From: an uncultured delta proteobacterium | Lineage (GTDB): Bacteria; Myxococcota_A; UBA9160; SMWR01 | Assembly (NCBI GenBank): GCA_963832165.1 | Contig: CAWHTE010000003.1 | Location: 1 to 64,000 of the forward strand | Direction of reading: 5' to 3' | Length of the DNA stretch: 64,000 bases | Shown: piece after piece, positions 3,097 to 26,869 of the stretch | Layout: every line of letters begins with the position of its first letter | Numbering within the stretch: position 1 is the stretch's first letter | Position numbers and translations under genes: made by a program | The notes under the pieces: generated by a model | What the model was told of the DNA's origin: nothing | The model's database searches: none | What the model saw: only the letters and a program-made list of their open reading frames with translations

Positions 3097-3792
3097 TCAC
3101 ACCCCGGGAACTTCGTCCGGATCCAGGAGCCCTCGGCGCCGCCAGCCGTGCGAGAGCAGCCACGAGTGCGGAGGAGAGACCGCAGCCACAGGGGGCGGTG
3201 AATGCGCGGCCGATGGAATCCTCGGCTTCCTCTTCCAGCCGTCGAACCATCTTCCCGACGACGCCGGATCGATCCCGGTCGCGCGCGACAGCGCGCGGCC
3301 GGCCTTGGCCGCGTGCCGGCGAGCATTCAGCAGCACGTAGGCCAGCGCATTACGCACCTCGCGCGGCGTTCTGAGCACGCGCACGTGGTAGCGATCGGAA
3401 AGCACCGGCCCGGAGCGCTCGAAGATCCGGTTCACGGCTCGGGCCAGTCGTGAACCGAGGGCCTTCATCCCGCGCCCAAGCGCATGGCGGTCCACGGCCT
3501 CCACGAGGAGATGCGCGTGATCGCCCTGGAGCGAGTAGTGGACGAGCCGGAACTCCCCGCGCTCGCAGCCGCGGGCGAACGTCGCTTCGACCTCGCGCAC
3601 GAGCCGCACGCTGCGCAGGGAGGGAACGTCCTTCCGCACCTTGAGTGTCACGTGACACGGCAACCCGCGGCCGAACGCCTCGCGTGATCGGTGTCGCAGG
3701 CGCGGGTTCGGCCCCGGCTTGCGTCCGGCGCCGGGCCTTCGCCCGCCCCAGCGGCGGCGATCGATCTCGAGCTGTTCGGGTTCGCGCCTCAC
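3097..3792 (-). mobile_element. Y1 HUH tyrosine transposase, RAYT/IS200-like (copy 1)
   Basis: HVTLK, DHAHLLVEA (HUH), NALAYVLLNARRH (catalytic Tyr); GTG start at 3792 inferred from promoter spacing and from the paralog at 43921. Confidence 0.85.
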
Positions 3793-3798
3793 GATTCG

Positions 3799-3827
3799 AT
3801 GATAGGGGCTATCTTTATGTTCGTCAA
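3799..3827 (-). promoter_or_regulatory. Sigma70-type promoter of RAYT copy 1
   Basis: TTGACG-17 nt-TATCAT on the minus strand, ending 6 nt before the GTG. Confidence 0.7.
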
Positions 3828-4003
3828 GGGGTGCAAACGCTTGCACAAAGAACGAAGTGGGAAGAAGCGGGCCGATTCCTCGCCGGCTCGTCGGCCTGGG
3901 GTGCGGAGCACGCTGCCGTTCCCTCACCAGCCTCTTCAGCAGCGCTGCGAGCGAACGGATCAGCGCTCGGCAGCTGCGGCGTCTTGCATGTGAGCGCAGT
4001 GCG

Positions 4004-10087: not shown

Positions 10088-11239
10088 CTACGGACTCCCA
10101 CCCGCGCCTAGCGTCTGGCCGATCGGCGGATTCGCGCGTTCGACGAGCCCGATGAAGTAGGCCGGGAAGAACTGCCCGGCCTCGGGCGCGCCCGGAGCGG
10201 CGTCGCTGGACGCGCACGTCGAGTCGAAGCGCGCTGCCTTCGGATCCGAGGTTCCGTCCGACTCGCCGGGCACCTTGATCCAGTAGTAGGCGTCGACCTG
10301 GGGCGCGGGTGCTGCGCGCGGCCGCTCGCCGAGCCCGGCGCCCTTCACGTTGCACCAGTGGCCCGACTTCGACCGGATCCCGGCGCGACCGTTTCGGCTC
10401 GTGTCGATCATGAATCCCTTGCCCGTGATGCCGGCCTTCGCGAGATCGCCCGAGAGCTTCTCGACGTAGGTGAGCTCGTCGGGGCAGGGATTGCTCGACT
10501 CGAGCCTCTTCACGTCGTCCCCGCGCAGCACGTTGTAGCCGGAGACGTTCGTCGCAAAGCCGCGGATCTTGTGCGGCCCGCCCGCGCGATCGAGCACATC
10601 CTTGAAGATCTCCGCGATCTTCGCTCGATGAGGGTCCCAGCCGAGCCATCCCGCATGCGCCGCATCGAGATAGAGCGCCACGTGGGGCATCGAGAGCGTC
10701 GAGATCGCGTAGGCAATCGACTCGCGATACAGCGAGTCGGACTTGGCGCACTTCTCCACCTTCGCGTTCGTGACCAGGTTCGCGAGTGAATCTGGCTCGA
10801 TCACGATGACGATGCGCTGATCGGTGTGTGCGCGCAGCTGCGCCGCGAGCGGATCGACCACCTCCGAGCGGTAGCGCCCCGCATCTCCGGCGCCGAACTC
10901 ACCCGCGGACGCGCTCGCCGCGCAATCGCGGTTCGGCAGGTCGTAGAGCACGAGCACGGCGAGCTGGCCGCGCGCCTCGTCGAGCCAGCGCGGCACGGCG
11001 TTCCTCACCTTGTCCGCCCGGTCGATCCAGAGCGCCACGGGCTGCGACGCGACCGCGCGCAGCTGCTCCGCCTTCTCGGGCGCCGCGGTCGCTGCGGACT
11101 CGACCTGCGCGCGCCACTCCGAGCTCACGTAGAAGCGCGCGCCCTCGAATGGGTTGCCCGGCGCCTCGGCCGCGCGCGCGAGCGACACCGCACACAGAAA
11201 CGACAGACCGACCAGCATCAACAGAATTTCACCCTTCAT
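10088..11239 (-). CDS. GH6 cellulase (cellobiohydrolase/endoglucanase), secreted
   Basis: Signal peptide MKGEILLMLV; YDLPNRDCAA, IEPDSLAN, YLDAAHAGWLGW, IDTSRNG, WCN, WIKVPGESDG, PEAGQFF. Confidence 0.95.
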   Translation of the reverse strand: MKGEILLMLVGLSFLCAVSLARAAEAPGNPFEGARFYVSSEWRAQVESAATAAPEKAEQLRAVASQPVALWIDRADKVRNAVPRWLDEARGQLAVLVLYDLPNRDCAASASAGEFGAGDAGRYRSEVVDPLAAQLRAHTDQRIVIVIEPDSLANLVTNAKVEKCAKSDSLYRESIAYAISTLSMPHVALYLDAAHAGWLGWDPHRAKIAEIFKDVLDRAGGPHKIRGFATNVSGYNVLRGDDVKRLESSNPCPDELTYVEKLSGDLAKAGITGKGFMIDTSRNGRAGIRSKSGHWCNVKGAGLGERPRAAPAPQVDAYYWIKVPGESDGTSDPKAARFDSTCASSDAAPGAPEAGQFFPAYFIGLVERANPPIGQTLGAGGSP

Positions 11240-12537
11240 GTCTCCTCCCTCGATCGCGGGAAGGGCGCCAGCCACGCCGCAAAGAGCGACGGGATCGACG
11301 CCAACATCACGACCAGAAAAAACGTTTCGTAGCCGAGCGCGTGCGCAAGCGGTCCGCTCAGGCTCTGCGTCGGGATCAGCACGAGATTCATGAGCGCCGT
11401 CGCGAACGCGTAATGCGTCATCTTGTATTCGCCCGGCGCGATCTGCTGCATCATGTACAGCATGTTCGCGACGAAGCCGAAGCTGTATCCGAACTTCTCG
11501 ATGCTCACGAGCAACGCGACGGTCCCGAGCGACGGCACGTTGCCGGCCGCGGTCATCTGGCTCAGCACGACGTAACACAGGTGCGGCACGTTGAGGCACA
11601 GGGCCATGAACACGAGCGTGCGCCTCAAGCCGAACTTCTCGATGAACAATCCGCCGAGCAGGCCCGCGACGATGCTGACCCCCGTGCTCACGGTGCCATC
11701 GATCAAGCCCTTGCTCTGGAGCGAGAGGCCGACCCCTCCGTCGGCGACACTGGCCTGCAGGAAGAGCGGCGCCTCGACCAGCAGGAACCCCTCGCCCGAT
11801 CGGAACAGGAAGACGAACGCGAGCATTCCCCAGATCGATTTCTTCTGGAAGAACGCGCGCACGCTGTCGACGAACGTCGCGAACACCTCCCCGGCGTTCT
11901 GCGGGCGCCGCGCGATCGATCCCGTCGGCAGCACGGAGCGGTGATAGAGCGCGAGCGCCGCCATCACGACTGCTGCGAGCAGCAGCGCCCAGGTCCAGGA
12001 GCTCTGGGCGGGCATGCCGGAGCTCTGGAGCGCGCCTGCGAGCGAGACCACCGCGGCCGTGGCGAAGATCCGGCCCGCATTCCAGGCCGTGCCCTGCATG
12101 CCGATCCAGGCGGCCTGGCGGCGCGAGTCGAGCGTCGTCACGTAGATGCCGTCGACGCAGATGTCCTGCGTCGCCGACGCGAATGCGACGGCCCACAGCA
12201 GCGCGATCGCGAGCGCGAAATAGCTCGGGGTTCCGAGTCCGATTGCGATCGCCGCGATCAATACCGCGATCAGCAGCTCTGACCCCACCACGAAGAACTT
12301 CTTCGTGCGCGCCATGTCGAGGAAGGCGGCCCAGAGCGGCTTGGCCGACCACGCGAGTCCGATCGTCGCCGTGGCGATTGTAATTTGTGCATCGCTGTGA
12401 CCCAGATCTTTGAACATCGTGCCCGCGACCCAGATCACCATCGCGAACGGAACACCCTCGGCGAAGTAGGCCGACGGCACCCACCAACGCGGTGAAACCG
12501 CACTCGTGTCTTGCAGCGATTCAGCCGATGTGTTCAA
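11236..12537 (-). CDS. MFS transporter, AmpG-like
   Basis: YFAEGVPF, ASATQDICVDG, YKMTHYAFAT; many TM segments; stop overlaps the GH6 start (ATGA); start approximate. Confidence 0.88.
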   Translation of the reverse strand: MNTSAESLQDTSAVSPRWWVPSAYFAEGVPFAMVIWVAGTMFKDLGHSDAQITIATATIGLAWSAKPLWAAFLDMARTKKFFVVGSELLIAVLIAAIAIGLGTPSYFALAIALLWAVAFASATQDICVDGIYVTTLDSRRQAAWIGMQGTAWNAGRIFATAAVVSLAGALQSSGMPAQSSWTWALLLAAVVMAALALYHRSVLPTGSIARRPQNAGEVFATFVDSVRAFFQKKSIWGMLAFVFLFRSGEGFLLVEAPLFLQASVADGGVGLSLQSKGLIDGTVSTGVSIVAGLLGGLFIEKFGLRRTLVFMALCLNVPHLCYVVLSQMTAAGNVPSLGTVALLVSIEKFGYSFGFVANMLYMMQQIAPGEYKMTHYAFATALMNLVLIPTQSLSGPLAHALGYETFFLVVMLASIPSLFAAWLAPFPRSREET

Positions 12538-12649
12538 CTCGGCCCCTCGCGCGCTCCGTTGCGTCCGTCGGTGTTCGACGCCCCCCGCCCAGAGTGCCTT
12601 CCCGCTGCGACGATCTGCGCCGAAGTTGGGCATTCGATCGGGGGTACAC

Positions 12650-14579
12650 GTGTTGGTGTCGCATTCGCGTTCACGGGTTCGCGGACAGCTCGGGCTGCTC
12701 GGCCTCTTGGTTTCGGTTCTGCTGCCGGCCGCATCGTTGGCGCAGCAGATCCAGGCCAACTTCAGAGTGACGAGCGACTGGAAGACGGGTTTCACGGGTG
12801 AGATCGAGCTGATCAATAAGGGCGCGACGCCGATCTCGGGCTGGACGCTCGAGTTCGATCTCGGCGGCCAGATCGTCAATCTCTGGAATGCCCGAGTCAC
12901 CGCGAGCGGAACGCACTACACGGTTCGCGATCTGGGTTGGAATGGCGGAGTGCGCTCGGGCGGATCGGTCGTATTCGGATTCCAGGCTTCGTACTCCGGG
13001 GATCGCCCCGGACCGACCAACTGCCGCTTCAACGGCCAGGCCTGCTCGTTCGGCGGAGCCGTCCCCAGTCCGGGTCCCAGCGCGCCCGTGGCCGTGCCCG
13101 CTGGCATCCGCGTGGAATGGCGAAGCATCAGGACGTCGAGCACGACCTACGGGGGGCTGATCCGGATCGTCAACCAGACGAACGCCGCGTGGCCGGACTG
13201 GCAGCTGAAGTTCGATCTCGCGGGATCGATCCAGAGCGTCCAGGGCGCAACCGTGTCGAGCTCGAACAACCTGCGCACGGCTAGCACGTCCGACCCGAGC
13301 AAGACGTCGATTCCCCGCCGGCGGATTCGTCGCGTTTCTGTTGAGCGGGACCTACCAGGGTACGGCGCCCGCGCCCACGTCCTGCCTCTTGAACGGCCAG
13401 GTCTGTGTCTTCTCGAGCCTCACGCAGCCGGCACAAGTACCGCCGGCACCCGTTCCGCCGCCGCCGCTGCCTCCGCCGCCTAGCGGGGCCGCGGGCTTCC
13501 TCTCGATGTCGGGCGCGACGATGGTCGACTCGAAGGGAGTCCCCGTCCGGCTCACCGGCGTGAACTGGTTCGGCTTCGAGACGGCCAATCGCGCCGTCCA
13601 CGGACTGTGGTCGCGCGACTATCGCAGCATGCTGCACCAGGTCCGCGACCTGGGCTTCAACGCCGTGCGCATTCCCTGGAGCAACGCGATTCTCGAGCCC
13701 GGAGCCGCGCCGAACGGCATCACGTTCTCGGGCGCCGACCCGTACGACGGCGTCGCTCCGATGAACCAGCCCTTGCAGGGCAAGACCAGCATGCAGGTGC
13801 TCGACCTCGTCATCGAGGCCGCCGGCCGCTACGGCCTGAAGGTGATCCTCGACAATCACTCGCGGAAGCCGGACAACTTCATCGCCGAGGGTCTGTGGTA
13901 CCTGCCCGACTTCCCGGAGAGCCGTTGGATCGCGGACTGGAAGGCGATGGCGACCCGCTACCGCAACAACCCGACCGTGGTCGCGTTCGATCTGCACAAC
14001 GAGCCGCACAATCAGGCGAGCTGGGGCGGAGATCCCTCCACCGACTTCGCGTCGGCATACGAGCGCGCGGCCGCCGCGATCCACTCGGTCCATCCCGACG
14101 TGATCATCATCGCCGGCGGCGTGCAGACCTACGGCGGCATCTCGTACTGGTGGGGAGGCAATCTGCGCGGCGTGAGGACGCGACCGCTCCAGATCAACCG
14201 GACCAAGCTCCTGTACTCCGCACACGACTACGGTCCCGAAGTCTTTCCGCAGACGTGGTTCTCCGCTCCGAACTACCCGAGCAACCTGCCGGCCCTCTGG
14301 GACGAGACCTGGGGATACATCCCGAAGCTGGGTCTCGGAGGCGTGTTCATCGGTGAGTTCGGCATCGGACACGCGGATGCCTACCAGGGCCGGGCGCTGC
14401 AGTGGATCCAGTCGCTCATGGCCTACATGGGCCGAACCTCGTCCTGGACCTACTGGAGCCTGAACCCGAACTCCGGCGATACGGGCGGCATCCTCAAGGA
14501 CGACTGGGTCAGCGTGCAGCAGTGGAAGCTGGACGTGTTGACGCCCTATCTCGCAGCGCAGTTCCCAGCAAGTCAGTGA
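12650..14579 (+). CDS. CBM2-CBM2-GH5 endoglucanase (GH5_1-like), split by a +1 frameshift at about 13313-13316
   Basis: Signal peptide; two CBM2 (W..GF..., LWNA, FGFQ, C..NG..C); Pro linker; GVNWFGFET, ILDNH, LHNEPH, SAHDYG, IGEFG, YWSLNPNSGDTGG. Removing one C from the CCCC run joins ORFs 12506.. and 13341.. Confidence 0.88.
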
Positions 14580-14586
14580 TCGCATG

Positions 14587-17500
14587 CTAGGCGGCGTTCT
14601 CCCATGCCGGCATGACGGCCTTCGCCGGCTCCTCGATCTCTTCGAGACCCACACGCCAGAAGAACAGGAAGCGCCGCCGCGCGTTCACGACGCGGCCCCA
14701 GCGCAGATCGGAGATCCGCCACAGCTCGCCGGCGCGCGGCCGGCGTCCTGTGCACAGGAGTCCGACGCCGCCGGGTGAGGCGTCTCGCAGCCACACGCTG
14801 CGCCGGCGATTGCGGCCGAGCCGCCGCGGAATCCAGTAGGTCGTGCGCGCGGGATAGCGCCGACGCAGAACGCGGGAGCGGCGGAAGTAGCTGGCGATGC
14901 CGAGCACGAACGACGCCGCGAGTGCAAAACGGCCGCGCCGCTCCCGTTCGCGGAGCTCCTCCCAGGTCTCGCTGCGCGCGAACACGCCGAGCAGGATCGC
15001 CTTGCGCGTCGCGGGCGTCGGGTCGACGAAGCGCACTCCGATGTGGTCGCGCCGGCCGACGCGCTCGTGGAACACGAGCTCTGCGCGTACGCGCAGGCCG
15101 CCGTTCAGGCCCAGGACCAGATCGAATTCGTACGGGAGCACCATGCGCTCGTCGAGGCGCAGCGAGCAGCCCGACAGGCTGATCTCCTCGGTCGTGGCGT
15201 GGATCGACTTGTGCGGCTTGTTCTCGATCCGCACGGCCACCTCACAGGGAACGCGCTCTTCGGCGCGGCGCTGCGGCCGCTCCCACGCGATCAGCAGCGC
15301 ACCGAACAGGAACAGCAGGTTGTAGCTGGCCCAGATCAGGTTGAAGAAGTAGGCGTCCTGCTCGATTCCGAACGTCGAGAGCTCCCAGACGCCCTTGCCG
15401 ATGCCCGCCAGCGTGAGCAACGCGAACAAGAGCGTCCAGCGCGACGAGCGCCAGTCGAAGCGGTGTCCCTGCGAGACGATTCCCTTCGGCGTCGCCTTGA
15501 AGCCGAGCGTGCTCGGCAGCAGCAGGTCGAAGATCGAGCGCGCGAGCGGCGCACTCACCGTGCTCTCGTAGAACGGCGCCCAGAGCGGTCGCTGCCAGCC
15601 CGGCATCAGCACGGCGCTGATCAGCGGCAGCACGAGCAGGTAGGGCAGGAGCCGCGCCGTGAGCACCGCGACATCCGAGAAGATCGGGTGCAGGTGGAAG
15701 AACAGGTAGTAGAGCGGCGTCACCCAGAACACGACCCGGGCGAGCGGGAAGAAGAAGTGGTAGAGCGAGCCGAAGTAGGCCAGGCGCTGGCGCAGCGACA
15801 GTCCGCGGCAGAAGAGCGGGTTGTCCTTGAAGAAGATCTGGAGGCAGCCGAGCATCCAGCGCCGGCGCTGCACGACGTACGAGGACAGGTTCTCGGCCTC
15901 GAGACCGACCGCGAGCGCCTTGTTCACGTACACCGAGCGCCAGCCGGCCGCGTGCAGATGGATGCTCGTGTGGATGTCCTCGGTGATCGAGAGCACCTGG
16001 AAGCCGTTGACCGACTCGAGCGCCTCGCGCCGGAACACCGCGCCGCTGCCGACGAAGAACGCGCCGCCCCAGCCGTTGCGCGCGGGTTGGATGCCGCGGT
16101 GGAACAGGTCCGATTCGTTCGGAATGCGTCCCTCTAGCCGGAACGCGTGCTGGAAGATGTCGGGATTGCGGAACACGTGTGGCGTCTGGACCAGGCCCAC
16201 GTCCGAATCCGCGAACCACCGGACCGTCTCCTCGAGGAACGTCACGCACGGGATGTGATCGGTGTCGAACACCACGACCAGGTCGCCTTTCGTGCGCCCG
16301 AGCGCCGAGTTGAGATTGCCGGCCTTCGCGTGCTCGCGCGGGCCGCGCAGGTAATGGACCCCGAGCTTTTGTGCGAGCTCGCGCACCTCCTCGCGGTGCC
16401 CGTCGTCGAGCACGTGGATGGTGAAACGCGGGTAACGCATCGCTTTCGCCCCCACGAGCGTCAGCTCGAGGATCTCGAGCGGCTCGTGGAAGACCGGAAT
16501 CATGACGTCGACGCTCGGCAGGAAATTCTTCGAACGCGGCGGCTTCCGGCGGCGACCGCGGCCGATCCCGACCTGCACGAGCATGAGCAGCACCGATCCG
16601 AAGCAGTACAGCTCGGCAACCCAGAGCGAGATGCTGATGAACTCACCGCCCGGCTCCAGGTGGTTCAACGAGTCCGTTCCGCGCCACCAGAGATAGTGGA
16701 AGGCGACCGTGAACGCGCTCGCGAGGAACAGGAAGCGTGTCGGCCTCTGCCAGAGCGTCCCATGCGCGAGGCGCGCGAGCGGGAACAGCGCGAAACACAG
16801 CATGAGCGGAAGGATCGGCAGGTTGGTCTTGAACGACCGGAAGTCGAAGGGCAGGAGGAATCCCAGCGGCTCGTCGAAGCGCCGCGCTTCGCCCAGCCAG
16901 AGCACCTCGTCGAACCAGAGCCAGTTGTGGAGGTAGTAGGGCGTATCGCGGTTCTCGAGCGCCTTCGCGCGCAGCGCGACGAGCTTCTTGGTGTGCAGCT
17001 CCTGCGCGAACGGCTCGTCGGCGAGCTCGGCGAGCGCGTGCGCGGTGGCATAGAGCGGCAGCGCCTCGAGCTCCGAGAGCGCCTTGCCACTCGTCTCGTA
17101 GCGGTCGTAGATGCGCTCGTGCTGCTCGAAGCTCGCGCGCAGGGGGGCGAGCATGCGATCGTGCAGGGACGCGAGCTGGGCCTCGTCCCGCCACGATTCG
17201 TTCGCTTCGAGCTCGAGATCGCGCAGGGCCGCGATTCCGTCGAAATCGAGGATCGCGGTGCGCCAGTTCCAGGTCGCATCGAGTGCGACCCGCCAGAAGA
17301 TCGGAAACGCATCGTATCCGAACGCGGAGACCTCTCCGCTTTTCGGATCCTCGAGCTGGAGCTTTCCGCTCTGCGCGTCGACCCAGATCTTCTCGGGCGG
17401 CAGCTGCATGTCCTGATCGAAATAGATCCAGCGCAGGACCCGGTAGGAGGTGTCGATGACGCCGGCCCAGTTGTGCTCGCGGTCGACCTTCGCAAACTCC

Positions 17501-18081
17501 TTGTAGGCGTAGGGCGCCAGATAGCCGACGTGGATTTCGGCGATCGGTTCGCGTTTCGTCCAATCGCCGGCGGTCGGGTAGTAGACGCCGCCGACCGCGA
17601 GGATCTCGAAATTCCAGATGTCGCCGATGATCTCGAGCGCCTCGCGCTCGTAGGCCGGCTCGTCGAAGCGGCGAGATGCGAGCAGCAGCGCCAGCGCGAT
17701 GTCGGTATCCGCGTCGGTGGCCGCGTGCTTGTCGATCACGCCGTCCTTCCACTTCCACGCGAACAGGTAGTCCCCTCGCACGCGCAAGTTGCTCTTCGTC
17801 CAGGTCCAGACGCGCGCGAACGACTCCGGATCGTTCGACCAGACCGCGCGCAGCATCGCGTAGCCCTGTCCCTCGGAGGTGGTGATTCCGCCCTCGTCGG
17901 GGCTGATCACACGGCCGGCATCCGTGTAGCGGTATTGGTAAAGGGTCTCGAGCGCTTCGAGCGCGTCGAGGCGCTCGTATCGCTTTCCGCTACTCGAGCT
18001 CACCTGCGCGCTGGCCGTCGCTGCACAGCACAGGATCAGGAACACAACCGCTGCAGCTCTGCACACTTCCGCTCGCGACAT
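14587..18081 (-). CDS. bcsA: GH8 endoglucanase - cellulose synthase (BcsA-type GT2) - PilZ fusion protein
   Basis: Signal peptide; GH8 TTSEGQGYAM, ATDADTDIALAL, GYDA; TM helices; GT2 VLDDG, HAKAGNLN, FDTDH, QTPH, FFVGSG, TEDI, QRRRW; PilZ RRAEER...EISLSG; one uninterrupted ORF. Confidence 0.92.
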   Translation of the reverse strand: MSRAEVCRAAAVVFLILCCAATASAQVSSSSGKRYERLDALEALETLYQYRYTDAGRVISPDEGGITTSEGQGYAMLRAVWSNDPESFARVWTWTKSNLRVRGDYLFAWKWKDGVIDKHAATDADTDIALALLLASRRFDEPAYEREALEIIGDIWNFEILAVGGVYYPTAGDWTKREPIAEIHVGYLAPYAYKEFAKVDREHNWAGVIDTSYRVLRWIYFDQDMQLPPEKIWVDAQSGKLQLEDPKSGEVSAFGYDAFPIFWRVALDATWNWRTAILDFDGIAALRDLELEANESWRDEAQLASLHDRMLAPLRASFEQHERIYDRYETSGKALSELEALPLYATAHALAELADEPFAQELHTKKLVALRAKALENRDTPYYLHNWLWFDEVLWLGEARRFDEPLGFLLPFDFRSFKTNLPILPLMLCFALFPLARLAHGTLWQRPTRFLFLASAFTVAFHYLWWRGTDSLNHLEPGGEFISISLWVAELYCFGSVLLMLVQVGIGRGRRRKPPRSKNFLPSVDVMIPVFHEPLEILELTLVGAKAMRYPRFTIHVLDDGHREEVRELAQKLGVHYLRGPREHAKAGNLNSALGRTKGDLVVVFDTDHIPCVTFLEETVRWFADSDVGLVQTPHVFRNPDIFQHAFRLEGRIPNESDLFHRGIQPARNGWGGAFFVGSGAVFRREALESVNGFQVLSITEDIHTSIHLHAAGWRSVYVNKALAVGLEAENLSSYVVQRRRWMLGCLQIFFKDNPLFCRGLSLRQRLAYFGSLYHFFFPLARVVFWVTPLYYLFFHLHPIFSDVAVLTARLLPYLLVLPLISAVLMPGWQRPLWAPFYESTVSAPLARSIFDLLLPSTLGFKATPKGIVSQGHRFDWRSSRWTLLFALLTLAGIGKGVWELSTFGIEQDAYFFNLIWASYNLLFLFGALLIAWERPQRRAEERVPCEVAVRIENKPHKSIHATTEEISLSGCSLRLDERMVLPYEFDLVLGLNGGLRVRAELVFHERVGRRDHIGVRFVDPTPATRKAILLGVFARSETWEELRERERRGRFALAASFVLGIASYFRRSRVLRRRYPARTTYWIPRRLGRNRRRSVWLRDASPGGVGLLCTGRRPRAGELWRISDLRWGRVVNARRRFLFFWRVGLEEIEEPAKAVMPAWENAA

Positions 18082-18129
18082 CTGCACCTCACGACGATGA
18101 CAGGGGGGCCGTCGCCTCGGGGGAGGGGT

Positions 18130-18144
18130 GCAGAATGCGTGCCG
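18130..18144 (-). promoter_or_regulatory. Sigma54-type -24/-12 motif for GH8-bcsA
   Basis: CGGCACGCATTCTGC, about 50 nt upstream of the ATG at 18081. Confidence 0.6.
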
Positions 18145-18236
18145 ATCAGGCCACTTCGGGACGCGCGAAACCCGATGTAACGCTGCTAAGAGATAAGACC
18201 CGGTGTCGTTTTTGTAGAAACGACTCGGGTCGTTTC

Positions 18237-19331
18237 TCAGCGCGCGCGGCGCCGCCGATGCAGGCGATCGAGCCACGCGAGCGCAGCCAATCCGGGCAGC
18301 AGCGCTGTGGGCTCGGGCAGCACGTGTGGCTGCATCACGGACATCTGCGGGCGATCCGCTTCGTTGGGCAGCGCGAGGTTCAGCGGATCGAGCGTGAACA
18401 TGTAGTCACCCCACCAGGGGCCACCTGCCCACCACGTCCAGCCGAGCCACACGTCGTCGTTCGCGTCGAGATGGCCGAGCATGTCGTGCAGCGCCTCGTC
18501 GCCGATCTGGCTCCCGCCGCTGCCGATCGAGCTGCTGGCCACCGCGAACTCACCGAGCAGGCCCTTGTAGCCGTGAGCCCGCAGCCACTGCGTGAAGCTC
18601 GCGAGCCGCTGCGATCCGATCGTCGGACTCGCGACCGCGGCGCTGGTTCCCGAGGAATCGCCGTCGAGGTACTGGTGAACCTCGAAAGCGAAGTTGTCGG
18701 CCGGGTCGACGATGCTCTGCATCGCGACGGCGTTCGCGGTGCCGTACCAGCTGTCCGACCAGCTGTGCGCACCGGTCCAGGCGTTTCCGGGCACGAGGAT
18801 CAGGTTGCCCGCGCCCGCGGCGCGGATCGCCGCGATCGCTGCATTCGCCGCGACCACCCATTGCTCCGTCGGCATGCTGTGCGGCTCGTTCATGAGGCCG
18901 AACATCACGCGCGGATTGTTCTTGTACTTCGCCGCCAGGCGCGACCAGAAATCCGCGAATGCCGAGTACGGCACCGAGGGGCTTCCGACGAGGTTGCCCT
19001 GGTAGCGCGCGTAGTTGTGCGGATCGAGGATCACGTGCGCGCCCGAAGCGGTGGCAAAGGCCACGACGGCGTCGAGCCGCGCGAGCTCCGTCGCGTCGAG
19101 CGGTGCCGAGAGCGTCCGCTGGAGCCGCTCCCATCGGAACGGAATCCGGAACAGGTTCATGCCCTTGTCGACGTAGTAGTCGATCTCGGCGGCGTTGGGA
19201 TAGATGTAGTGGCTGCCGTAGCTGCCCGGGAGCTGGCTCTCGCCGAACTCGGCGCCGGAAAGGTTGACGCCCGTGTAGTCGACGAGCGCCGACATGACAG
19301 CCGGACGCGCGAGCACACACACGAAGAGCAC
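18237..19331 (-). CDS. GH5 endoglucanase (GH5_5-like) with PEP-CTERM sorting signal
   Basis: GVNLSGAEFG, FRIPFRWER, DPHNYARY, LMNEPH, FEVHQYLD, LLGEF, WWAGGPWW; C-terminus LPEP-hydrophobic-RRRRAR. Confidence 0.92.
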   Translation of the reverse strand: MLFVCVLARPAVMSALVDYTGVNLSGAEFGESQLPGSYGSHYIYPNAAEIDYYVDKGMNLFRIPFRWERLQRTLSAPLDATELARLDAVVAFATASGAHVILDPHNYARYQGNLVGSPSVPYSAFADFWSRLAAKYKNNPRVMFGLMNEPHSMPTEQWVVAANAAIAAIRAAGAGNLILVPGNAWTGAHSWSDSWYGTANAVAMQSIVDPADNFAFEVHQYLDGDSSGTSAAVASPTIGSQRLASFTQWLRAHGYKGLLGEFAVASSSIGSGGSQIGDEALHDMLGHLDANDDVWLGWTWWAGGPWWGDYMFTLDPLNLALPNEADRPQMSVMQPHVLPEPTALLPGLAALAWLDRLHRRRRAR

Positions 19332-19428
19332 TGTTGCGGCAAGGATGGACGTCGCACTCCATCCACAACCGCTGCGAGCGGTCGAATCCCCGATGGAGGA
19401 AAGGCTAACGCAGGTTCAGCGCGCGCAC

Positions 19429-19444
19429 TGTGAGCGCGCTCACA
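19429..19444. promoter_or_regulatory. CRP/FNR-type palindromic box
   Basis: Perfect palindrome TGTGA-GCGCGC-TCACA about 100 nt upstream of the GH5 gene. Confidence 0.5.
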
Positions 19445-19445
19445 A

Positions 19446-19495
19446 GTAGGGCGGGAGGAGCCGAGGCGCCGCAGGCGCCGACGGCGGATCCCGCC
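19446..19495 (+). repeat. GTAG-type REP (extended loop)
   Basis: GTAGGGCGGGAGGAGCCG-AGGCGCCGCAGGCGCCGA-CGGCGGATCCCGCC. Confidence 0.75.
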
Positions 19496-19521
19496 ATCCG
19501 CCTTATTTATGAAAGCTGCGC

Positions 19522-22500
19522 TCAGAACTCGAAGGCGAGCCTCGTCGACGCGCCGAAGCGCGTGTACGCCGCGCCGAGCGACTTCACCTCGGCGCCGATC
19601 CCCCAGTACACCGACGGGTGCAGGAAGAGCACCCACTCGAGCTTCCCCTGACCACCGGCTCCGACGTCCCAGCTCTCGCCGTTCTGATGCGACGCCTGGA
19701 CGGCCGGGCCGCCTTCGATGTCGAGGAACGCGCTCTCGCCCATGCGAATCGAGAGCGCGAGCCCCGGCTCGACGGAGCCGAAGCCCTGCGGGCTGAAATA
19801 GCCGCCGGGTCTCGGGCTGCCCTCCAGAAGGTCGACCCCGAACGCGTCGTAGTCGTAGTAGTAGCCCTCGGCCGCGAGCATCGGGGAGACCTCGACGTGA
19901 TCTCCGTCGAAGATCCGGTAGCGCATGTCCATGCGGCCGCCGCCGAACGCGTTGATGGAGGTGGCCTTCGCGTCGACGAAGCCGCCGTAGGGCTCGAGGT
20001 GGAACGTGCCCCTCTCGCCCTGGTAGCGCGTGAAGAAGCGCAGGCGATTCTCACGCGCGGAGCCGATCTTGCGCCCGTTGATCGTGTCGCCCACGAGCGC
20101 CACGTACGAGTCGTAACGGAGCGACCGCTCCGCCCCGAGGCCGACCTTCCAGCTCTCGCCGAGGTGGCTGTATTCGACGCGCCCCGGAATGCTGCGCTCG
20201 CCGATCCGGTGATAGCCGAGGCCGAGGCCGAACTCGTTGTTCTCGCCGTGGAAGTCCGTATCCACGCGCGCGAATCCGCCGCCGGTGTCGTCGTCTTCGT
20301 AGTCCAGCTGATCGTCGGTGCGGACCTTGCCCGAGTATTTCTCGGCGCCACCCTCGGCGCGCAGCGTCACGAACGTGCCGGTTTCGCCGCCGGCGTTGAG
20401 CCGACCGGCGCCGCCTCCCTGGACGCCCTCCAGCTCCGACTTGGTCCGGCCGCGCTGCACGACCCCGCGCACGAATCCCTGCAGTCGCGGATCGCGCCCG
20501 CGCATCAGGTCCTTGCGCAGCTCGAAGAGATCGCTCTCGCTTGCGCCGTAGCGGACCGCCAGGTTCGCCTCGCGCAGCGCCTGGTCGCGCTTGTGCTGCG
20601 CGGCGTAGCCGGCCGCGAGTCCCGCGTGGGCCGGTCCGTTCTTCGGCTCCCTCTCGATCACGTTCTCGTAGTGCTCGATCGCATCGGGCGTGGTCTCGCG
20701 TTCGCCCGCGAGCAGGCCCGCGAGCTTGAGGCGCACTCCGATGTTGTCCGGCTGCTCCTTCAGCAGCGCCTCGTACTGCTGCTGCGCCTCGGCGCGGCCC
20801 GCTTTCTCGCCCGAGAGCGCATCGGCGAGCGCCTCGCGCGTCTCGGGCCGCGGATCCGCAGCGAGGAGCTTGCGGTACTCCCCGATCGCCTCGTTGCGGC
20901 GTTTGGGATCGGCCGCAATCAGGCCCAGGTACTCGACGCGCAGCGTCTGGTCGTCGGGGCGGGCCTCGAGGAGACCGCGGTAGAGCCGCGCGGCCTCGTC
21001 GCTGCGCGGGTCGTCGCGCGCGAGCAGCCGCGCGAGCGTGTGGGCCACCTCGAAGTCGCCGGGCTTCTCCTTCGCATAGCGCCGGTACTCCGCGATCGCC
21101 TCCTTCGTGTTCTTCTCGTCCCAGAGCAGCGCCTTGCGGTACTCCGCGCGCAGCTCGGGATCTTCGGGCTTGTCCTTCGGCTGCGCCTTGATCAGCTCGC
21201 GGTACTGCGCGATCGCCTCGTCGACGTGCGCGCGATCCGACGCGAGCAGACGCGCGAGCTTGCGGCGCGTCGCGGGCTTCGGATCGCCCTTGAGGATGGT
21301 GCGGTACTGCTCGATCGCATCGTTGCGGCGCTGCGCGTTGCTCGCGAGCAGATCGGCGTACTCGAGACGCACCGCGTTGTTGGTGGGTTGCTTCTTGAGC
21401 ACGTCGGCGTAGACGGTGAGGGCTTCCTGGCTCGTCGGATCCTCGGCCGCGAGCATTTTCGCAAGTGCGTGCTGTGCTTCGGTGTCGCCGGGTCGCTCCG
21501 ACACGACGCGCCGGAGTTCCTGGATCGCGTCGGGCCGGTATCGCTCGTCCCAGAGCAGCAGGTCGCGGTACTCCGCGCGGTATTCGGGGTTTCCGGGGTC
21601 GCTCTGCACGAGTGTGCGGTACTGCTGGACGGCTTCGTCGATCTGCGCGCGATCCGACGCCAGCAGGCGCGCGAGCTTGTGGCGCGTTTCGGGCCGCGGG
21701 TCCCTCTCGAGGACGGTGCGGTACTCCGCGATCGCGTCGAAGCGTCGCTCATCGTTGGCCGCGAGCATGTCGGCGTACTCGAGCCGCAGCGCCAGATCGG
21801 AAGGTCGGCTGCGCACGACCTCTTCCTCGAGCTTCAGGGCCTCCTGGCTGCTCGGATTCTGTTTGACGAGCAGCTGGGCCAATGTGCGCTTCTGGTCGAG
21901 ATCGCTCGGCTTCGCGGCCACCACGCGCCGCTGCTCCTCGATCGACTCGTTGAGATGGCGGTCGTCCCAGAGCAGCAGCTTGCGATATTCCTCGCGCCAC
22001 TGTGCGTTGTTGGGCTGGGCCTTGAGCAGGATCTTGTACTGCTCGACCGCTTCGTTGAGGTTCGCGCGATCCGATGCCAGCAGGCGCGCATACTTGTGCC
22101 GCATCTCGGGGCTCGGGTCTTTCTCGACCAGCTTCTTGTACTGCGCGATCGCCTCCGAGTTCTGCTTCGAGCCGGCCGCGCCCGAGCCGGCCGAGCCCGA
22201 GAGCAGATCCGCGTACTCGCGGCGCAGCTTCTCGTCGTTCGGCTTCCGCTTGACGAGGTCGCCGTAGCGCCGGACCACCTCCTCGCTCTTCGGATTCTTG
22301 CGCGCGAGCAACGTGGCGAGCGTGTGATCGACTTCGAAGTCGCCCTTCTTCTCGTCGGCGTACTTCCGGTATTCCTGGATCGCCTCGTCGAGATTCTTGT
22401 CGTCCCAGACGAGGAGCTTGCGATACTCGTTGCGGATTTCGGCGTTGTTCGGCTTCGCCTTCAGCAGTGCGCGGTATTCCGTGAGCGCCTCGTTGATCTG

Positions 22501-22995
22501 CTTTTTGTCTCGAGCCAGCAGCTGGGCGAGCTTGTGGCGGCGGTCGGGGTCGTCGCGCACGGCCAGCCCCATCCTGTAGTACTTGATCGCGTCTTCCCGG
22601 CGGTAGGCGAAGCGCGACCAGCCCAGGTAGTCGGCCTGCTTGAACGCGATCTCGGCGTCGTCGTGAAAGCGCTCGAGGTAGCGGTCGTACTGCTTGATCG
22701 CGTCGGTGGTGAGGCCCTGCTTCTCGTACGCGACGCCGAGCTGCTTCATCGCCTCGCGATTGTCGGGATTGAGCTTGGTGACCTTCTGGTAGGCCTCGAT
22801 CGCGGCCTTGTAGTTCTTTATCTCCATGTTGCTGCGCCCGCGCTCGAGGTACCACTTCTCGGTGCCCTCCTTCAGCTGCGCTTGCATCGCCGCCGGAGCG
22901 AGCAGCGCGAGTCCGATCGCTGCGAGCACGGCGCCGACGGAGGCGCGGAGGTTTCGAGGGCGGGTTCTGCGGGTGCATTTCGGCAACGGCGGCAT
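19522..22995 (-). CDS. TPR-repeat protein with C-terminal outer-membrane beta-barrel (BcsC-like export protein)
   Basis: Signal peptide; about 20 TPR-like repeats; about 330-aa C-terminal region of amphipathic strands containing GGYFSPQ and ending RLAFEF. Confidence 0.8.
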   Translation of the reverse strand: MPPLPKCTRRTRPRNLRASVGAVLAAIGLALLAPAAMQAQLKEGTEKWYLERGRSNMEIKNYKAAIEAYQKVTKLNPDNREAMKQLGVAYEKQGLTTDAIKQYDRYLERFHDDAEIAFKQADYLGWSRFAYRREDAIKYYRMGLAVRDDPDRRHKLAQLLARDKKQINEALTEYRALLKAKPNNAEIRNEYRKLLVWDDKNLDEAIQEYRKYADEKKGDFEVDHTLATLLARKNPKSEEVVRRYGDLVKRKPNDEKLRREYADLLSGSAGSGAAGSKQNSEAIAQYKKLVEKDPSPEMRHKYARLLASDRANLNEAVEQYKILLKAQPNNAQWREEYRKLLLWDDRHLNESIEEQRRVVAAKPSDLDQKRTLAQLLVKQNPSSQEALKLEEEVVRSRPSDLALRLEYADMLAANDERRFDAIAEYRTVLERDPRPETRHKLARLLASDRAQIDEAVQQYRTLVQSDPGNPEYRAEYRDLLLWDERYRPDAIQELRRVVSERPGDTEAQHALAKMLAAEDPTSQEALTVYADVLKKQPTNNAVRLEYADLLASNAQRRNDAIEQYRTILKGDPKPATRRKLARLLASDRAHVDEAIAQYRELIKAQPKDKPEDPELRAEYRKALLWDEKNTKEAIAEYRRYAKEKPGDFEVAHTLARLLARDDPRSDEAARLYRGLLEARPDDQTLRVEYLGLIAADPKRRNEAIGEYRKLLAADPRPETREALADALSGEKAGRAEAQQQYEALLKEQPDNIGVRLKLAGLLAGERETTPDAIEHYENVIEREPKNGPAHAGLAAGYAAQHKRDQALREANLAVRYGASESDLFELRKDLMRGRDPRLQGFVRGVVQRGRTKSELEGVQGGGAGRLNAGGETGTFVTLRAEGGAEKYSGKVRTDDQLDYEDDDTGGGFARVDTDFHGENNEFGLGLGYHRIGERSIPGRVEYSHLGESWKVGLGAERSLRYDSYVALVGDTINGRKIGSARENRLRFFTRYQGERGTFHLEPYGGFVDAKATSINAFGGGRMDMRYRIFDGDHVEVSPMLAAEGYYYDYDAFGVDLLEGSPRPGGYFSPQGFGSVEPGLALSIRMGESAFLDIEGGPAVQASHQNGESWDVGAGGQGKLEWVLFLHPSVYWGIGAEVKSLGAAYTRFGASTRLAFEF

Positions 22996-23184: not shown

Positions 23185-23607
23185 TCAATCCACTTCGGGG
23201 GTCCCCGTATCGCCTCGACCCTCCCTCAGATCTTCGCGTGCGCGTTGCGCGATTCGCTCGTAGCGCGCGTGAATGCGGTCGAGCTCGTCTTCCTCGAGCT
23301 CTTCGAGGTCGAGCAGCACGTTGTGGGCGCCTTCGCTGATCCGGAGCAGCTCGTCGAGCTTCACCTGGATCGCCTCTCCGTCGCGGTTCTGGATGTTCTG
23401 GATCAGGAACACCATCAAGAACGTGACGATCGTGGTGCCCGTGTTGATCACGAGCTGCCAGGTATTGCTGAAGCCGAACAGCGGTCCGGTCACGATCCAG
23501 ATGAGAACCGATCCGAGTGCGAGGCAGAAGACGACCGGCTTCCCGGTCGCGCGCGCGGTGCCCTTGGCGAGCCGATCGAAGTGCGAGCGCGATCTGGTCG
23601 GGCGCAT
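23185..23607 (-). CDS. Low-affinity iron permease family protein
   Basis: TGPLFGFSNTWQLVINTGTTIVTFLMVFLIQN...NRD..AIQVKLDELLR. Confidence 0.92.
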   Translation of the reverse strand: MRPTRSRSHFDRLAKGTARATGKPVVFCLALGSVLIWIVTGPLFGFSNTWQLVINTGTTIVTFLMVFLIQNIQNRDGEAIQVKLDELLRISEGAHNVLLDLEELEEDELDRIHARYERIAQRAREDLREGRGDTGTPEVD

Positions 23608-23615
23608 GTCGGTGG

Positions 23616-23843
23616 TCAGCCCGTAGCGGCTTCCCTGTAGAGCTCGTCGAGGACCACTTGTGCCTCGGGGTCTCCGCAATCGGCCGCCGACGCGAGTGCA
23701 GCGAGACAGGCGGTCCGCGCGCGCAGAGCGGGCTCGAGCTGGCGGAGTAGCGGCTCCTGCTTGGCCGGATCGCTCTGGAGCTCCAGCTCCGCCTCCAATC
23801 GCTCCACGCGCCGGATCGAGGAGAGCAGTCGATCGACTACCAC
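23616..23843 (-). CDS. Small helical hypothetical protein
   Basis: ORF fills the gap between the DUF3309 and iron permease genes in the same orientation. Confidence 0.5.
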   Translation of the reverse strand: MVVDRLLSSIRRVERLEAELELQSDPAKQEPLLRQLEPALRARTACLAALASAADCGDPEAQVVLDELYREAATG

Positions 23844-24910: not shown

Positions 24911-25540
24911 GTGAAAGCCCAGGCGCGACGAACACCCGACACGAACGAAGTGCGCCGGTCGCCGACGGCACTGCTGCTGGTCGACGTCATCAATCCCATG
25001 AACTTCGCCGGCGCGGATGCGCTGCTCGGGCACGCCATTCCGGCCGCGGATCGGATCGCGCGATTGCGTGTGCGCGCGCGAGAGGCTGGCATCGCCGTCG
25101 TCTACGTGAACGACAACTTCGACTGCTGGCACCTCGGCTTTCGAGAGCTGGTCGAATCGTTCCTGACGGCCGACGTTCCGGGAAAACCGATCATCGAGCG
25201 GCTTGCGCCCGAGCTCGCGCAGGAGTTCTACGTTCTCAAACCAGGCCATTCAGGCTTTTTTCGCACCGGCCTCGAGGAGCTGCTGCGCCGGCTCGATGCC
25301 CGGAAGCTGATTCTCACTGGCTTTGCTGGCGACATCTGCGTGCTGTTCACAGCCAATGACGCCTACATGCGCGGCTTCGACGTCGTGATTCCCTCGGACT
25401 GCGTCGCTTCCGAGCGCGACGAAGACAACGCGCACGCGCTGCGCCAGATGGCGCGCATTCTGAAAGCCGACGTCTCGCCGTCTGACACGATCCGGTTTCG
25501 CCCGCTCCAAAGCGAGCGCGAGGATCGGCGCGTCGGTTGA
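24911..25540 (+). CDS. Isochorismatase-family cysteine hydrolase
   Basis: LLLVDVIN, VYVNDNF, KPGHSGF, GDICVLFTANDAYMR; start could also be the GTG at 24950. Confidence 0.9.
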   Translation: MKAQARRTPDTNEVRRSPTALLLVDVINPMNFAGADALLGHAIPAADRIARLRVRAREAGIAVVYVNDNFDCWHLGFRELVESFLTADVPGKPIIERLAPELAQEFYVLKPGHSGFFRTGLEELLRRLDARKLILTGFAGDICVLFTANDAYMRGFDVVIPSDCVASERDEDNAHALRQMARILKADVSPSDTIRFRPLQSEREDRRVG

Positions 25541-25641
25541 CCGCCGCGCTGCCGTTCTTGCCAAGAGCGATTCTACGAATTGACACCGTCCAGGTTCGGG
25601 CGCGGATCTTGCAGCCTTCGATGTGTTCGGAGGAACGAGAC

Positions 25642-26160
25642 ATGGCGACGTTGTCGAGGGTGAGCGCAAAGGTCACTGGCGCAGCAAAGGCGATGGAAAA
25701 GGCTCTCAGGGGCTATCCCGCGATATTCCGCCATCTGGCGGGCGAACACGGAGAGGTCGCGACGTTGTTGGCGCGAGTAGCGGCGTCCTCCGAGGACATC
25801 GAGATCCGCGGGGAACTCTTCCCAGAGATCCGCAAGAGCCTGCTCGCGCACGCGAAGGCCGAGGAGAAGGAGTTCTACGAGCCGTTGCGCGGTTTCTCGC
25901 GCACGGCGTCGATGATCCCCCAGGCGCTCGAAGAGCACCGCCAGATCGAGCAGCTGCTCGAGCAGCTACACGGCCAGAGCTTCACGAGCGCTACCTGGTT
26001 CGGGACGTTCCAGACCCTCTGCACGGCTGTCGAAGCGCACGTGGAGCGTGAAGAGAACGAGCTGTTCGTGGCTGCGAAGGAAGTGCTCGACAGCGATCGC
26101 GCGAAGCAGATGGAAGAAAGCTACGAGCGCACCGAGGAACGGGAGAAGGCTCGCCTCTGA
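25642..26160 (+). CDS. Hemerythrin-like (HHE) domain protein
   Basis: EHGEV, HAKAEE, EEHRQI, HVEREE; GGAGG RBS; GG-N10-GC motif at 25598-25612. Confidence 0.87.
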   Translation: MATLSRVSAKVTGAAKAMEKALRGYPAIFRHLAGEHGEVATLLARVAASSEDIEIRGELFPEIRKSLLAHAKAEEKEFYEPLRGFSRTASMIPQALEEHRQIEQLLEQLHGQSFTSATWFGTFQTLCTAVEAHVEREENELFVAAKEVLDSDRAKQMEESYERTEEREKARL

Positions 26161-26188
26161 TTCCGGGCTGTCTCTATGGGAGAATGAA

Positions 26189-26869
26189 ATGAACCCGATT
26201 CAATTGATCAAGCAGGACCACCGGACGGTGAAGGCCTTGTTTCGCCGGTTCGAGAAGGCCGACCGCAGCGCGGAGAAGCAGAAGCTGGGCCAGGAGATCA
26301 TCGAGGAGCTTTCGATCCACACCGCGATGGAGGAGATGCTGATCTACCCGCTGCTGAAGGCGCGAGGTCCGCAGCTCGAAGATCCCATCCTGAATGCGCT
26401 CGAGGAGCACCACGCGGTGAAGCTCGTGCTCGCAGAGCTCGACAAGATGAATGCCGACGAAGAGCGGTACGACGCGAAGATGCACGTCGTTCGGGAGTCG
26501 GTCGAGATGCACATCGAGGAGGAGGAGTCCAAACTGCTCCCGCGCCTCGATACGCTCGACGCCGAAGACCGCAGGAACCTCGCGAGCGCCATGCTCCAGA
26601 TGAAGGAGGATGCTCCGAACTACCCGCATCCCCATGTGCCCGATACGCCGCCCGGCGCAGTGATCGCCGCGATGCTCGCGAAGATGACGGACTCGGGGAA
26701 GGATCTCGTGCGCCGGATCACGAGCAGCGACAAGGCTGCGGGCCATCGCCGCGTGAAGCGGCGCGCGAGCCGCACCGCGAGCAAGACCCAGCGCAAGCGC
26801 GCTCGCTCGACGGCGCGCAAGCCCCGCAGCTCGCGAGCGCGGTCGGCGCGTGGCAGCGGAGGTCGCTGA
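26189..26869 (+). CDS. Hemerythrin-like (HHE) domain protein with basic tail
   Basis: DHRTV, HTAMEE, EEHHAVK, HIEEEE, PHPHVPDTPP. Confidence 0.88.
   Translation: MNPIQLIKQDHRTVKALFRRFEKADRSAEKQKLGQEIIEELSIHTAMEEMLIYPLLKARGPQLEDPILNALEEHHAVKLVLAELDKMNADEERYDAKMHVVRESVEMHIEEEESKLLPRLDTLDAEDRRNLASAMLQMKEDAPNYPHPHVPDTPPGAVIAAMLAKMTDSGKDLVRRITSSDKAAGHRRVKRRASRTASKTQRKRARSTARKPRSSRARSARGSGGR

Follow-up and report, generated by a model that had tools for sequence, protein, structure and literature searches.

Does a bacterium whose cellulose synthase genes lie among cellulase genes digest plant material, or does it make cellulose and later take it back? The question is raised by a six-gene locus (positions 10,088 to 22,995) in a 64,000-nucleotide stretch of DNA, referred to as the window here, from an uncultured delta proteobacterium of the lineage Myxococcota_A; UBA9160; SMWR01 (assembly GCA_963832165.1, contig CAWHTE010000003.1). 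In this locus, genes for a cellulose synthase fused to a GH8 glucanase and for a BcsC-like exporter adjoin genes for a GH6 cellulase, two GH5 endoglucanases, and a transporter of the major facilitator superfamily (MFS). We regard the locus as a real, conserved variant of synthase-dependent cellulose secretion and, judging from sequence, favor with a probability of roughly 0.55 the reading that the cell trims the cellulose it produces and recovers this polymer at a later stage; plant digestion is not favored. The evidence consists of the gene content of the locus, the intact catalytic motifs and the folds of its products, their conserved linkage, and the absence of the other plant cell wall enzymes for which we searched. 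In the following, G000 denotes this genome and G004 a congener, while other G and L numbers denote the genomes and loci compared.

We called genes from the open reading frame (ORF) listing, codon-position GC content, and Pfam and NCBIfam scans. All six genes that a first-pass annotation of this DNA had proposed were recovered in their places by ORFs and Pfam/NCBIfam matches. The features of the locus are as follows (aa, amino acids; CBM, carbohydrate-binding module; TPR, tetratricopeptide repeat).

10088..11239, minus strand: GH6 enzyme (383 aa; PF01341, E value 1e-95)
11236..12537, minus strand: MFS transporter of an AmpG-like subfamily (MFS_1 match; TIGR00901, 137 bits)
12538..12649: divergent intergenic region between the MFS-GH6 and CBM2-GH5 genes (alignment of 4 homologous regions)
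12650..14579, plus strand: CBM2, degenerate CBM2, Pro linker, and GH5 endoglucanase (two ORFs in the assembly)
14587..18081, minus strand: GH8-BcsA-PilZ-PilZ fusion (1164 aa; profiles, motifs, and predicted structure)
18237..19331, minus strand: GH5 endoglucanase with a PEP-CTERM-type tail, referred to as GH5-PEP (start uncertain; tails of homologs)
19483..19502: GC hairpin with a T-rich flank, a possible terminator in the gap between the exporter and GH5-PEP genes (consensus scan only)
19522..22995, minus strand: TPR array and 16-stranded beta-barrel, BcsC-like exporter (1157 aa; profile and model)

The genes are contiguous, as annotated, but they do not form a single operon: the CBM2-CBM2-GH5 gene lies on the plus strand and the other five on the minus strand, which implies three or more transcription units. 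This gene is divergent from the MFS-GH6 pair and convergent with the synthase gene, with a 7-bp gap to the synthase stop, while the GH5-PEP gene sits between the exporter and synthase genes on the strand of both. The translational coupling suggested for MFS and GH6 holds: the stop codon of MFS and the start codon of GH6 share the sequence ATGA, and GGAGG lies upstream. The MFS gene itself starts with TTG.

The synthase is composed of an N-terminal hydrophobic helix, the GH8 domain, three transmembrane (TM) helices (residues 423-438, 445-470, and 479-504), the GT2 domain, further TM helices, and two PilZ-like domains. The annotated GH8-BcsA fusion was therefore correct, to which we add the second, C-terminal PilZ-like domain, seen in the predicted model and in a second PilZ motif set at residues 1075-1105. 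The spacing by three TM helices between the GH8 and GT domains fits a periplasmic location of the fused GH8. In an alignment of 51 homologs (fragments and one duplicate excluded), the GH8 residues E70 and D257 and the motifs DD, HAKAGN, QTPH, FFxGS, TED, QRRRW, FxxTxKG, and PilZ RxxxR are invariant or nearly so. The BcsA-type set (D,D,D,QxxRW, HAKAGN, FFxGS, TED, and the gating-loop FxVTxK, with A for V in the window) is present, as is the PilZ set, with R939 and R943 invariant and E966-x-S-x-x-G971 (D in 47 of the 51). In both sequence and fold, the protein is matched best by cellulose synthases, and the folds of the predicted model (predicted local distance difference test [pLDDT] score, 84.8) match BcsA and BcsZ, while the NCBIfam CelA equivalog cutoff is not reached (529 versus 699 bits).

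The family profile of the exporter matches the BcsC porin region (9b8a, E value 2e-14; 6tzk, E value 8e-6), and the model of its last 470 aa (pLDDT 90) is a 16-strand barrel with BcsC as the top fold match. Most homologs of this 1157-aa protein measure about 520-730 aa, and one 1153-aa exporter occurs elsewhere. Among the features of Bcs types I to III, the locus thus has a BcsC-like TPR porin and a GH8 BcsZ as a fused domain; none of bcsQ, -D, -E, or -G is found among the six genes, a statement confined to the locus, as the rest of the genome was not searched. None of the five fusion genomes tested gave a BcsB match (PF03170), while the E. coli control was positive. The two-gene core is widespread, since the TPR gene directly follows the synthase in 46 of 56 genome loci; in the remaining 10, nine contigs end first and one shows an unrelated weak match. 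Three loci merge the core into single ORFs of 1661-1669 aa (L063:9992-15001, L065:10028-15013, and L067:10007-14992; similar-length proteins are P0444, P0461, and P0470) in which GH8, BcsA, and PilZ are joined to a hydrophobic helix resembling a signal, to TPRs, and to the barrel; this ties the exporter to the synthase.

Of the added cellulases, the GH6 enzyme has a hydrophobic N-terminal signal-like stretch and no CBM. Its best solved relatives are cellobiohydrolase II/Cel6A enzymes (E value 7e-84), with open-cleft endoglucanases scoring far lower. The motifs DLPNRD, EPDS, and GESDG are present, and a full-length alignment to cellobiohydrolases includes the catalytic aspartates and both active-site loops; the enzyme is predicted to be processive. 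The CBM-bearing GH5, presumably of GH5_1, finds its best structure in endocellulase E1 (E value 2e-111) and contains NEP and IGEFG. The annotated CBM2-CBM2-GH5 layout stands for the GH5 and the first CBM2, which has the three Trp-bearing motifs of cellulose-binding CBM2a modules; the second CBM2 is degenerate and lacks these motifs, scoring in G004 (E value 6e-13) and falling below detection in G000, and the counterpart at L116 reads CBM2-Big_7-GH5. GH5-PEP matches Cel5A/EGI-type enzymes (presumably GH5_5; structure 4ee9 is RBcel1). Its tail of LPEP, a hydrophobic TM stretch, and basic RRRRAR is kept in type in 38 of 38 close homologs longer than 300 aa, and G000 encodes exosortases and about 96 PEP-CTERM-type tails. 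These are the features of an exosortase substrate, although the PEP-CTERM hidden Markov model itself gave no match.

In the assembly, CBM2-CBM2-GH5 is broken into two ORFs by a 1-nt frame change at a C4 run (13313-13316). Given that the G004 homolog is a single 681-aa frame and that a test of 45 conserved G000 genes revealed frame changes in 4, this one included, the break is probably an assembly indel and no true lesion. Four DNA sequencing runs provided short pieces, a few of them (in X1) nearly identical and none covering the frameshift place. The G000 genes for GH1 (C2:319905-321241), an exosortase (C3:208608-209364), and a GGDEF protein (C3:252026-252500) are also split by frame changes, indicating an indel-prone assembly. 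Completeness is 89% for G000 and 71% for G004.

Synteny in relatives was among the checks named by the first-pass annotation, and the linkage of the cellulase and MFS genes to the synthase proved to be conserved across one synthase clade. Protein searches returned eight close synthase clusters at 69-73%, followed by a gap down to 62%. In a quick-search tree of 50 rows, the window synthase falls into a 13-row clade (Shimodaira-Hasegawa-like approximate likelihood ratio test, 100) composed of these 8 clusters, G000, G004, and three cluster members. The gene order of G004 up to its contig end is that of the window (GH6-MFS-CBM2GH5-BcsA). G004 also has a plain synthase-exporter copy, with no cellulase within the DNA available around it; its cassette-linked and plain synthases (L021 and L022) are sisters in the tree, the plain copy being sister to the clade.

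For the wider clade, we scored co-location of synthase, MFS, and GH5-PEP by identical contig size, after expanding 20 MFS/GH5 and 8 synthase clusters plus two GH5 clusters and dropping 5 short synthase fragments. Sixteen listed clade synthases exceed 1000 aa; the contig size of 9 recurs for a close MFS and that of 7 for a close GH5-PEP, so that 11 have at least one of the two partners. All six clade synthases on contigs of at least 10 kb match an MFS, and contigs of 43344, 32123, 12738, 8420, and 98229 bp recur in all three lists, while no match occurred among 111 other synthases or 92 distant MFS. In their own tree, the MFS fall into a 20-row clade that corresponds to that of the synthases, and the distances within the two sets of paired proteins are correlated (Mantel test, rho 0.46, p 0.002). 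This validates the pairing but reflects shared descent, probably from one evolutionary event. The linkage has survived protein divergence of as much as 29%. Loci L116 and L117 carry CBM2-GH5, MFS, and GH6, and L118 carries MFS and GH6; the MFS of L116 and L118 hardly differ from MFS that are linked to a synthase. Five other congeners (three of them 90-99% complete) have none of synthase, GH6, GH5, or MFS, and a search for the empty site in cassette-free congeners found no close ortholog of the flanking amidohydrolase (best 41%). The closest named homologs are labeled Myxococcota.

The repertoire of the host differs from that of a plant cell wall forager, as marked by several GH9, GH10/GH43 xylanases, and GH94. 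No GH9, GH10, or GH43 match was found in G000 or G004 (89% and 71% complete), and tblastn of G000 gave no match to GH94, GH52, GH16, GH2, or epimerase queries; the profile PF06165 gave only a weak N-domain match (E value 3e-8); GH48, GH11, GH12, and lytic polysaccharide monooxygenases were not searched. All GH5, GH6, and CBM2 matches of G000 lie within the locus. The genome also has GH1 and GH3, the type II secretion proteins GspE and GspL over cutoff, and 11 GGDEF matches over cutoff. We considered GH1 as part of an acquired cassette and rejected this, as it is present in the cassette-free congeners G001, G003, and G005. As a plant wall degrader the host would be atypical, and given that a pure-cellulose kit without hemicellulases stands beside a synthase, bacterial cellulose fits as the substrate.

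The transporter had been likened to AmpG, by analogy with muropeptide recycling, and credited with the possible import of cello-oligosaccharides. The first part fails: the protein stays far below the AmpG cutoffs (TIGR00901, 137 of 350 bits; NF008867, 70 of 656; NF008238, 48 of 756), although its homologs carry the AmpG label in the sources, and nothing links it to muropeptides. Among 96 neighboring proteins scanned, we found beta-glycan enzymes and no peptidoglycan recycling genes. At 80 metagenome MFS loci, BcsA occurs in none and a carbohydrate-active enzyme (CAZyme) in 21, including GH1 (6), GH6 (4), GH9 (3), GH52 (3), GH16 (3), GH94 (2), and epimerase (2); a TonB receptor match accompanies 14 of the 80, mostly in one related group. 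In a phylum sample of 350, GH6 occurs in 9 genomes, and these include all 4 that have the MFS subfamily; in the family of the MFS-bearing genomes, MFS and GH6 occur in the same 4 of 26. Because of these catabolic neighbors and the co-occurrence with GH6, we read the MFS as an importer of degrader origin for beta-oligosaccharides, likely cello-oligosaccharides, so that the second part of the proposal survives without the AmpG identity. Since the wider subfamily is found in synthase-free degraders, the cassette was probably borrowed from cellulose foragers and fixed beside one synthase copy, a direction taken from an unrooted fast tree. More generally, the subfamily adjoins GH9-GH1, GH94, GH52-GH8, epimerase-GH2, and TonB receptor genes (L123, L158, L166, L171, L188, and L195) and tracks GH6 across genomes (G379, G407, G439, and G451), which makes it a candidate oligosaccharide importer.

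Under the self-recycling reading, c-di-GMP bound to PilZ would activate the GT2 synthase, and the fused periplasmic GH8 would remove stray chains in the manner of BcsZ, while the TPR scaffold would lead the chain to the 16-strand barrel. At the cell surface, the exosortase-anchored GH5 would cut chains. From a separate divergent promoter pair, CBM2-GH5, which would nick the deposited cellulose, and GH6, which would release cellobiose, would be produced and exported, probably by type II secretion; the MFS would import cellobiose or cellodextrins, from which a GH1 encoded elsewhere would free glucose. The divergent arrangement of MFS-GH6 and CBM2-GH5 permits control of these genes independently of the synthase, as making and then breaking would need and foraging would also allow. 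A further step, which we offer tentatively and with some doubt, is that the secreted cellulose is a recoverable carbon store, deposited by the c-di-GMP-gated synthase and reclaimed by the endo- and exocellulases and the AmpG-fold cellodextrin importer.

In the 112-bp divergent region, CCCCCG and CGGGGGT boxes ∼55 nt apart are conserved in 4 homologous intergenic regions (window positions 12575-12650), the CGGGGGT box being the likely ribosome-binding site. The two boxes pair in the predicted fold of 2 of the 4 regions, which is not significant. A riboswitch or an anti-Shine-Dalgarno hairpin was rejected for now, since no Rfam match came near the gathering score and folding of the region was no better than that of shuffles (z-scores, -1.0 to +0.9). 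A consensus scan returned no sigma-70 site and 13 terminator-like sites, versus 6.4 ± 2.5 in shuffles.

Several observations weigh against self-recycling. GH5, GH6, CBM2, or MFS genes occur at 0 of 67 GH8+BcsA loci (33 with at least 5 kb on each side), and among 73 proteins selected from 23 of these loci, no added cellulase was revealed by Pfam. Our class sample of 225 genomes has the fusion in 17 (an 18th match is a plain BcsA), and because 15 of these 17 lack GH6, the hydrolases are accessory to the core. Within the class, GH6 occurs in three genomes, G000, G004, and G120, the last with two distant copies (35-36%) and no synthase found. MFS subfamily and GH6 occur together in 4 degraders without a fusion synthase, and of 12 close MFS on contigs of at least 10 kb, 6 lack a listed synthase, a count that would miss synthases shorter than 640 aa and unlisted cluster members. 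The linked cases are all kin and probably go back to one evolutionary event; contig-size matching is indirect, and short sizes coincide by chance (4169 and 4675 between unrelated lists), so that the weight lies on long contigs and triple matches. GH1, needed for the last step, is also found in three cassette-free congeners, and BcsB was not found, though its anchor is essential in model systems (PMC8892547). Cellulases unlinked to the synthase had been named as one refutation of the make-and-break idea; they exist in the class and among the MFS loci, and linkage nevertheless holds in the clade. Overall, that idea gains from clade-wide linkage, the lack of GH9, GH10, and GH43, and the catabolic company of the MFS, and loses from the accessory status of the hydrolases and the failed AmpG label.

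Many of these points serve the best-surviving alternative, which we consider rather unlikely: GH6, MFS, and CBM2-GH5 would be a minimal foraging kit for external cellulose, of plants or of neighbors' biofilm, docked by the synthase without a functional tie. Such a kit would explain its own divergent promoter region, its convergent orientation relative to the synthase, the cellobiohydrolase-like GH6, and the half of the close MFS on long contigs without a listed synthase. The MFS clade, moreover, nests among transporters beside GH1, GH9, GH94, GH52, epimerase, and TonB receptor genes, its sister is the GH6+GH5 locus L171, and the MFS loci flanked by CAZymes (21 of 80) are all without BcsA. However, the three of three tested degraders with this MFS have 2-6 GH9 and 1-5 GH10 matches each, where G000 and G004 have none; the linkage has been kept over up to 29% divergence, a third cellulase lies inside the synthase-exporter pair, and the plain synthase copy of G004 has no cellulase within the DNA available.

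An improbable alternative is that the role of the added enzymes is confined to shaping the product or setting it free (chain length, shedding, or dispersal), with the MFS moving a signal or by-product and little carbon being recovered. GH5 and GH6 partners of synthases are known, namely, CcsZ, the Acidisarcina GH5_1, CslZ, and the proposed Ps_Cel5A (PMC8892547, PMC9693552, PMC9040799, and PMC8900817), and GH5-PEP, tethered and inside the module, would suit this role; but coupling a cellobiohydrolase to an importer is an arrangement for harvesting, and the other neighbors of the MFS subfamily are catabolic. Finally, it is very improbable that the BcsB-less synthase is inactive or forms a beta-glucan of another kind, with mixed linkages or of short chain length, and that the cellulases target something else. 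This might be thought from the lack of BcsB in 5 of 5 fusion genomes tested and from a synthase score of 529 against the 699-bit CelA cutoff, the product being a predicted one. Against it, cellulose synthases rank first in the sequence and fold comparisons, the motifs are invariant, and the barrel is closest to BcsC.

With the proteobacterial Bcs system (PDB 4p00, 9b8v, 3qxf, 9b8a, and 6tzk), the locus shares the GT2-PilZ synthase, the GH8 glucanase, and the TPR-barrel exporter. It differs in having no BcsB found, a GH8 fused into the synthase, a second PilZ-like domain, added exo- and endocellulases and an MFS, and no bcsQ, -D, -E, or -G among its six genes. Its orthologous core is the GH8-BcsA-PilZ2 plus TPR-barrel module of Nitrospira, Anaeromyxobacter, Bdellovibrionota, Fibrobacterota, and other Myxococcota (46-63% identity), from which it departs by an exporter that lies upstream, is about twice as long, and is separated by the GH5-PEP gene, and by three more catabolic genes. 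Around that module, we also observed two broken, opposed fusion-synthase copies on one contig (L219; G189:C19), an additional, divergent BcsA-like gene (33%) that lies upstream of the module, on the other strand, at two Nitrospira loci (L043:2249-4039 and L053:5634-7427), a BcsA-PilZ gene without GH8 beside a PilY1-domain gene (L027:9207-11483; G082), and, at several Myxococcota loci (L022:7881-8798 and L078:8875-9732), a gene for a phosphodiester glycosidase (NAGPA) located upstream of the plain module.

The view that the hydrolases lie outside the standard bcs set agrees with their accessory status, whereas a GH6 or GH5 beside a synthase has precedents. In Streptomyces cslA-glxA-cslZ, a GH6 gene stands divergent beside the cellulose synthase gene cslA; as differences from the window, CslZ, a putative lipoprotein without a CBM, cuts peptidoglycan as well, its host is Gram-positive and has no barrel, and no transporter or CBM2-GH5 is described with it in the text consulted (PMC9040799). 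A GH5 serves cellulose synthesis, or is proposed to, in clostridial CcsZ, which is membrane-tethered (PMC8892547, which also covers the Bcs types), in Acidisarcina ACPOL_3660, a GH5_1 in place of BcsZ (PMC9693552), and in Ps_Cel5A/RBcel1 of GH5_5 (PMC8900817). The GH5 replaces GH8 there, whereas the window adds two GH5 and a GH6 to an intact GH8. With the AmpG permease (TIGR00901), the transporter shares the MFS fold family, in contrast to its score (137 versus 350 bits) and its beta-glycan neighbors. Two further sources report that added cellulase breaks cellulose flocs (PMC9012009) and interpret a Myxococcota GH5 as cellulose degradation (10.64898/2026.07.10.737566). We found no published description of an endo-exo-importer set on a GH8-fused, BcsB-less synthase, most subscription papers being outside the scope of the search; literature on the fusion, AmpG and cellobiose, synthase plus cellobiohydrolase recycling, PEP-CTERM cellulases, non-cellulolytic cellulases, and UBA9160 and cellulose did not describe the arrangement. 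Single hydrolases beside synthases are thus already known, and what is new is that one synthase subclade travels with GH6, CBM2-GH5, GH5-PEP, and an MFS.

Near the locus, the window encodes an IS200-like transposase domain (3097-3927), a low-affinity iron permease (23185-23679), and two tandem hemerythrins (25537-26869).

If self-recycling is true, this would be a synthase locus with a complete salvage route, going beyond BcsZ-type trimming, and GH6 together with CBM2-GH5, a usual sign of plant decay, could serve matrix turnover, which would alter genome-based counts of decomposers. It would also give a testable substrate to a large MFS subfamily mislabeled AmpG. As G004 has one synthase with the cassette and another without it, it offers a natural comparison within a single genome, and the BcsB-less core makes the question of BcsB necessity testable. 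Should the carbon store reading be true, the locus would hold a full cycle of cellulose synthesis and salvage together with an unrecognized transporter subfamily, which would be a marker of beta-glycan users.

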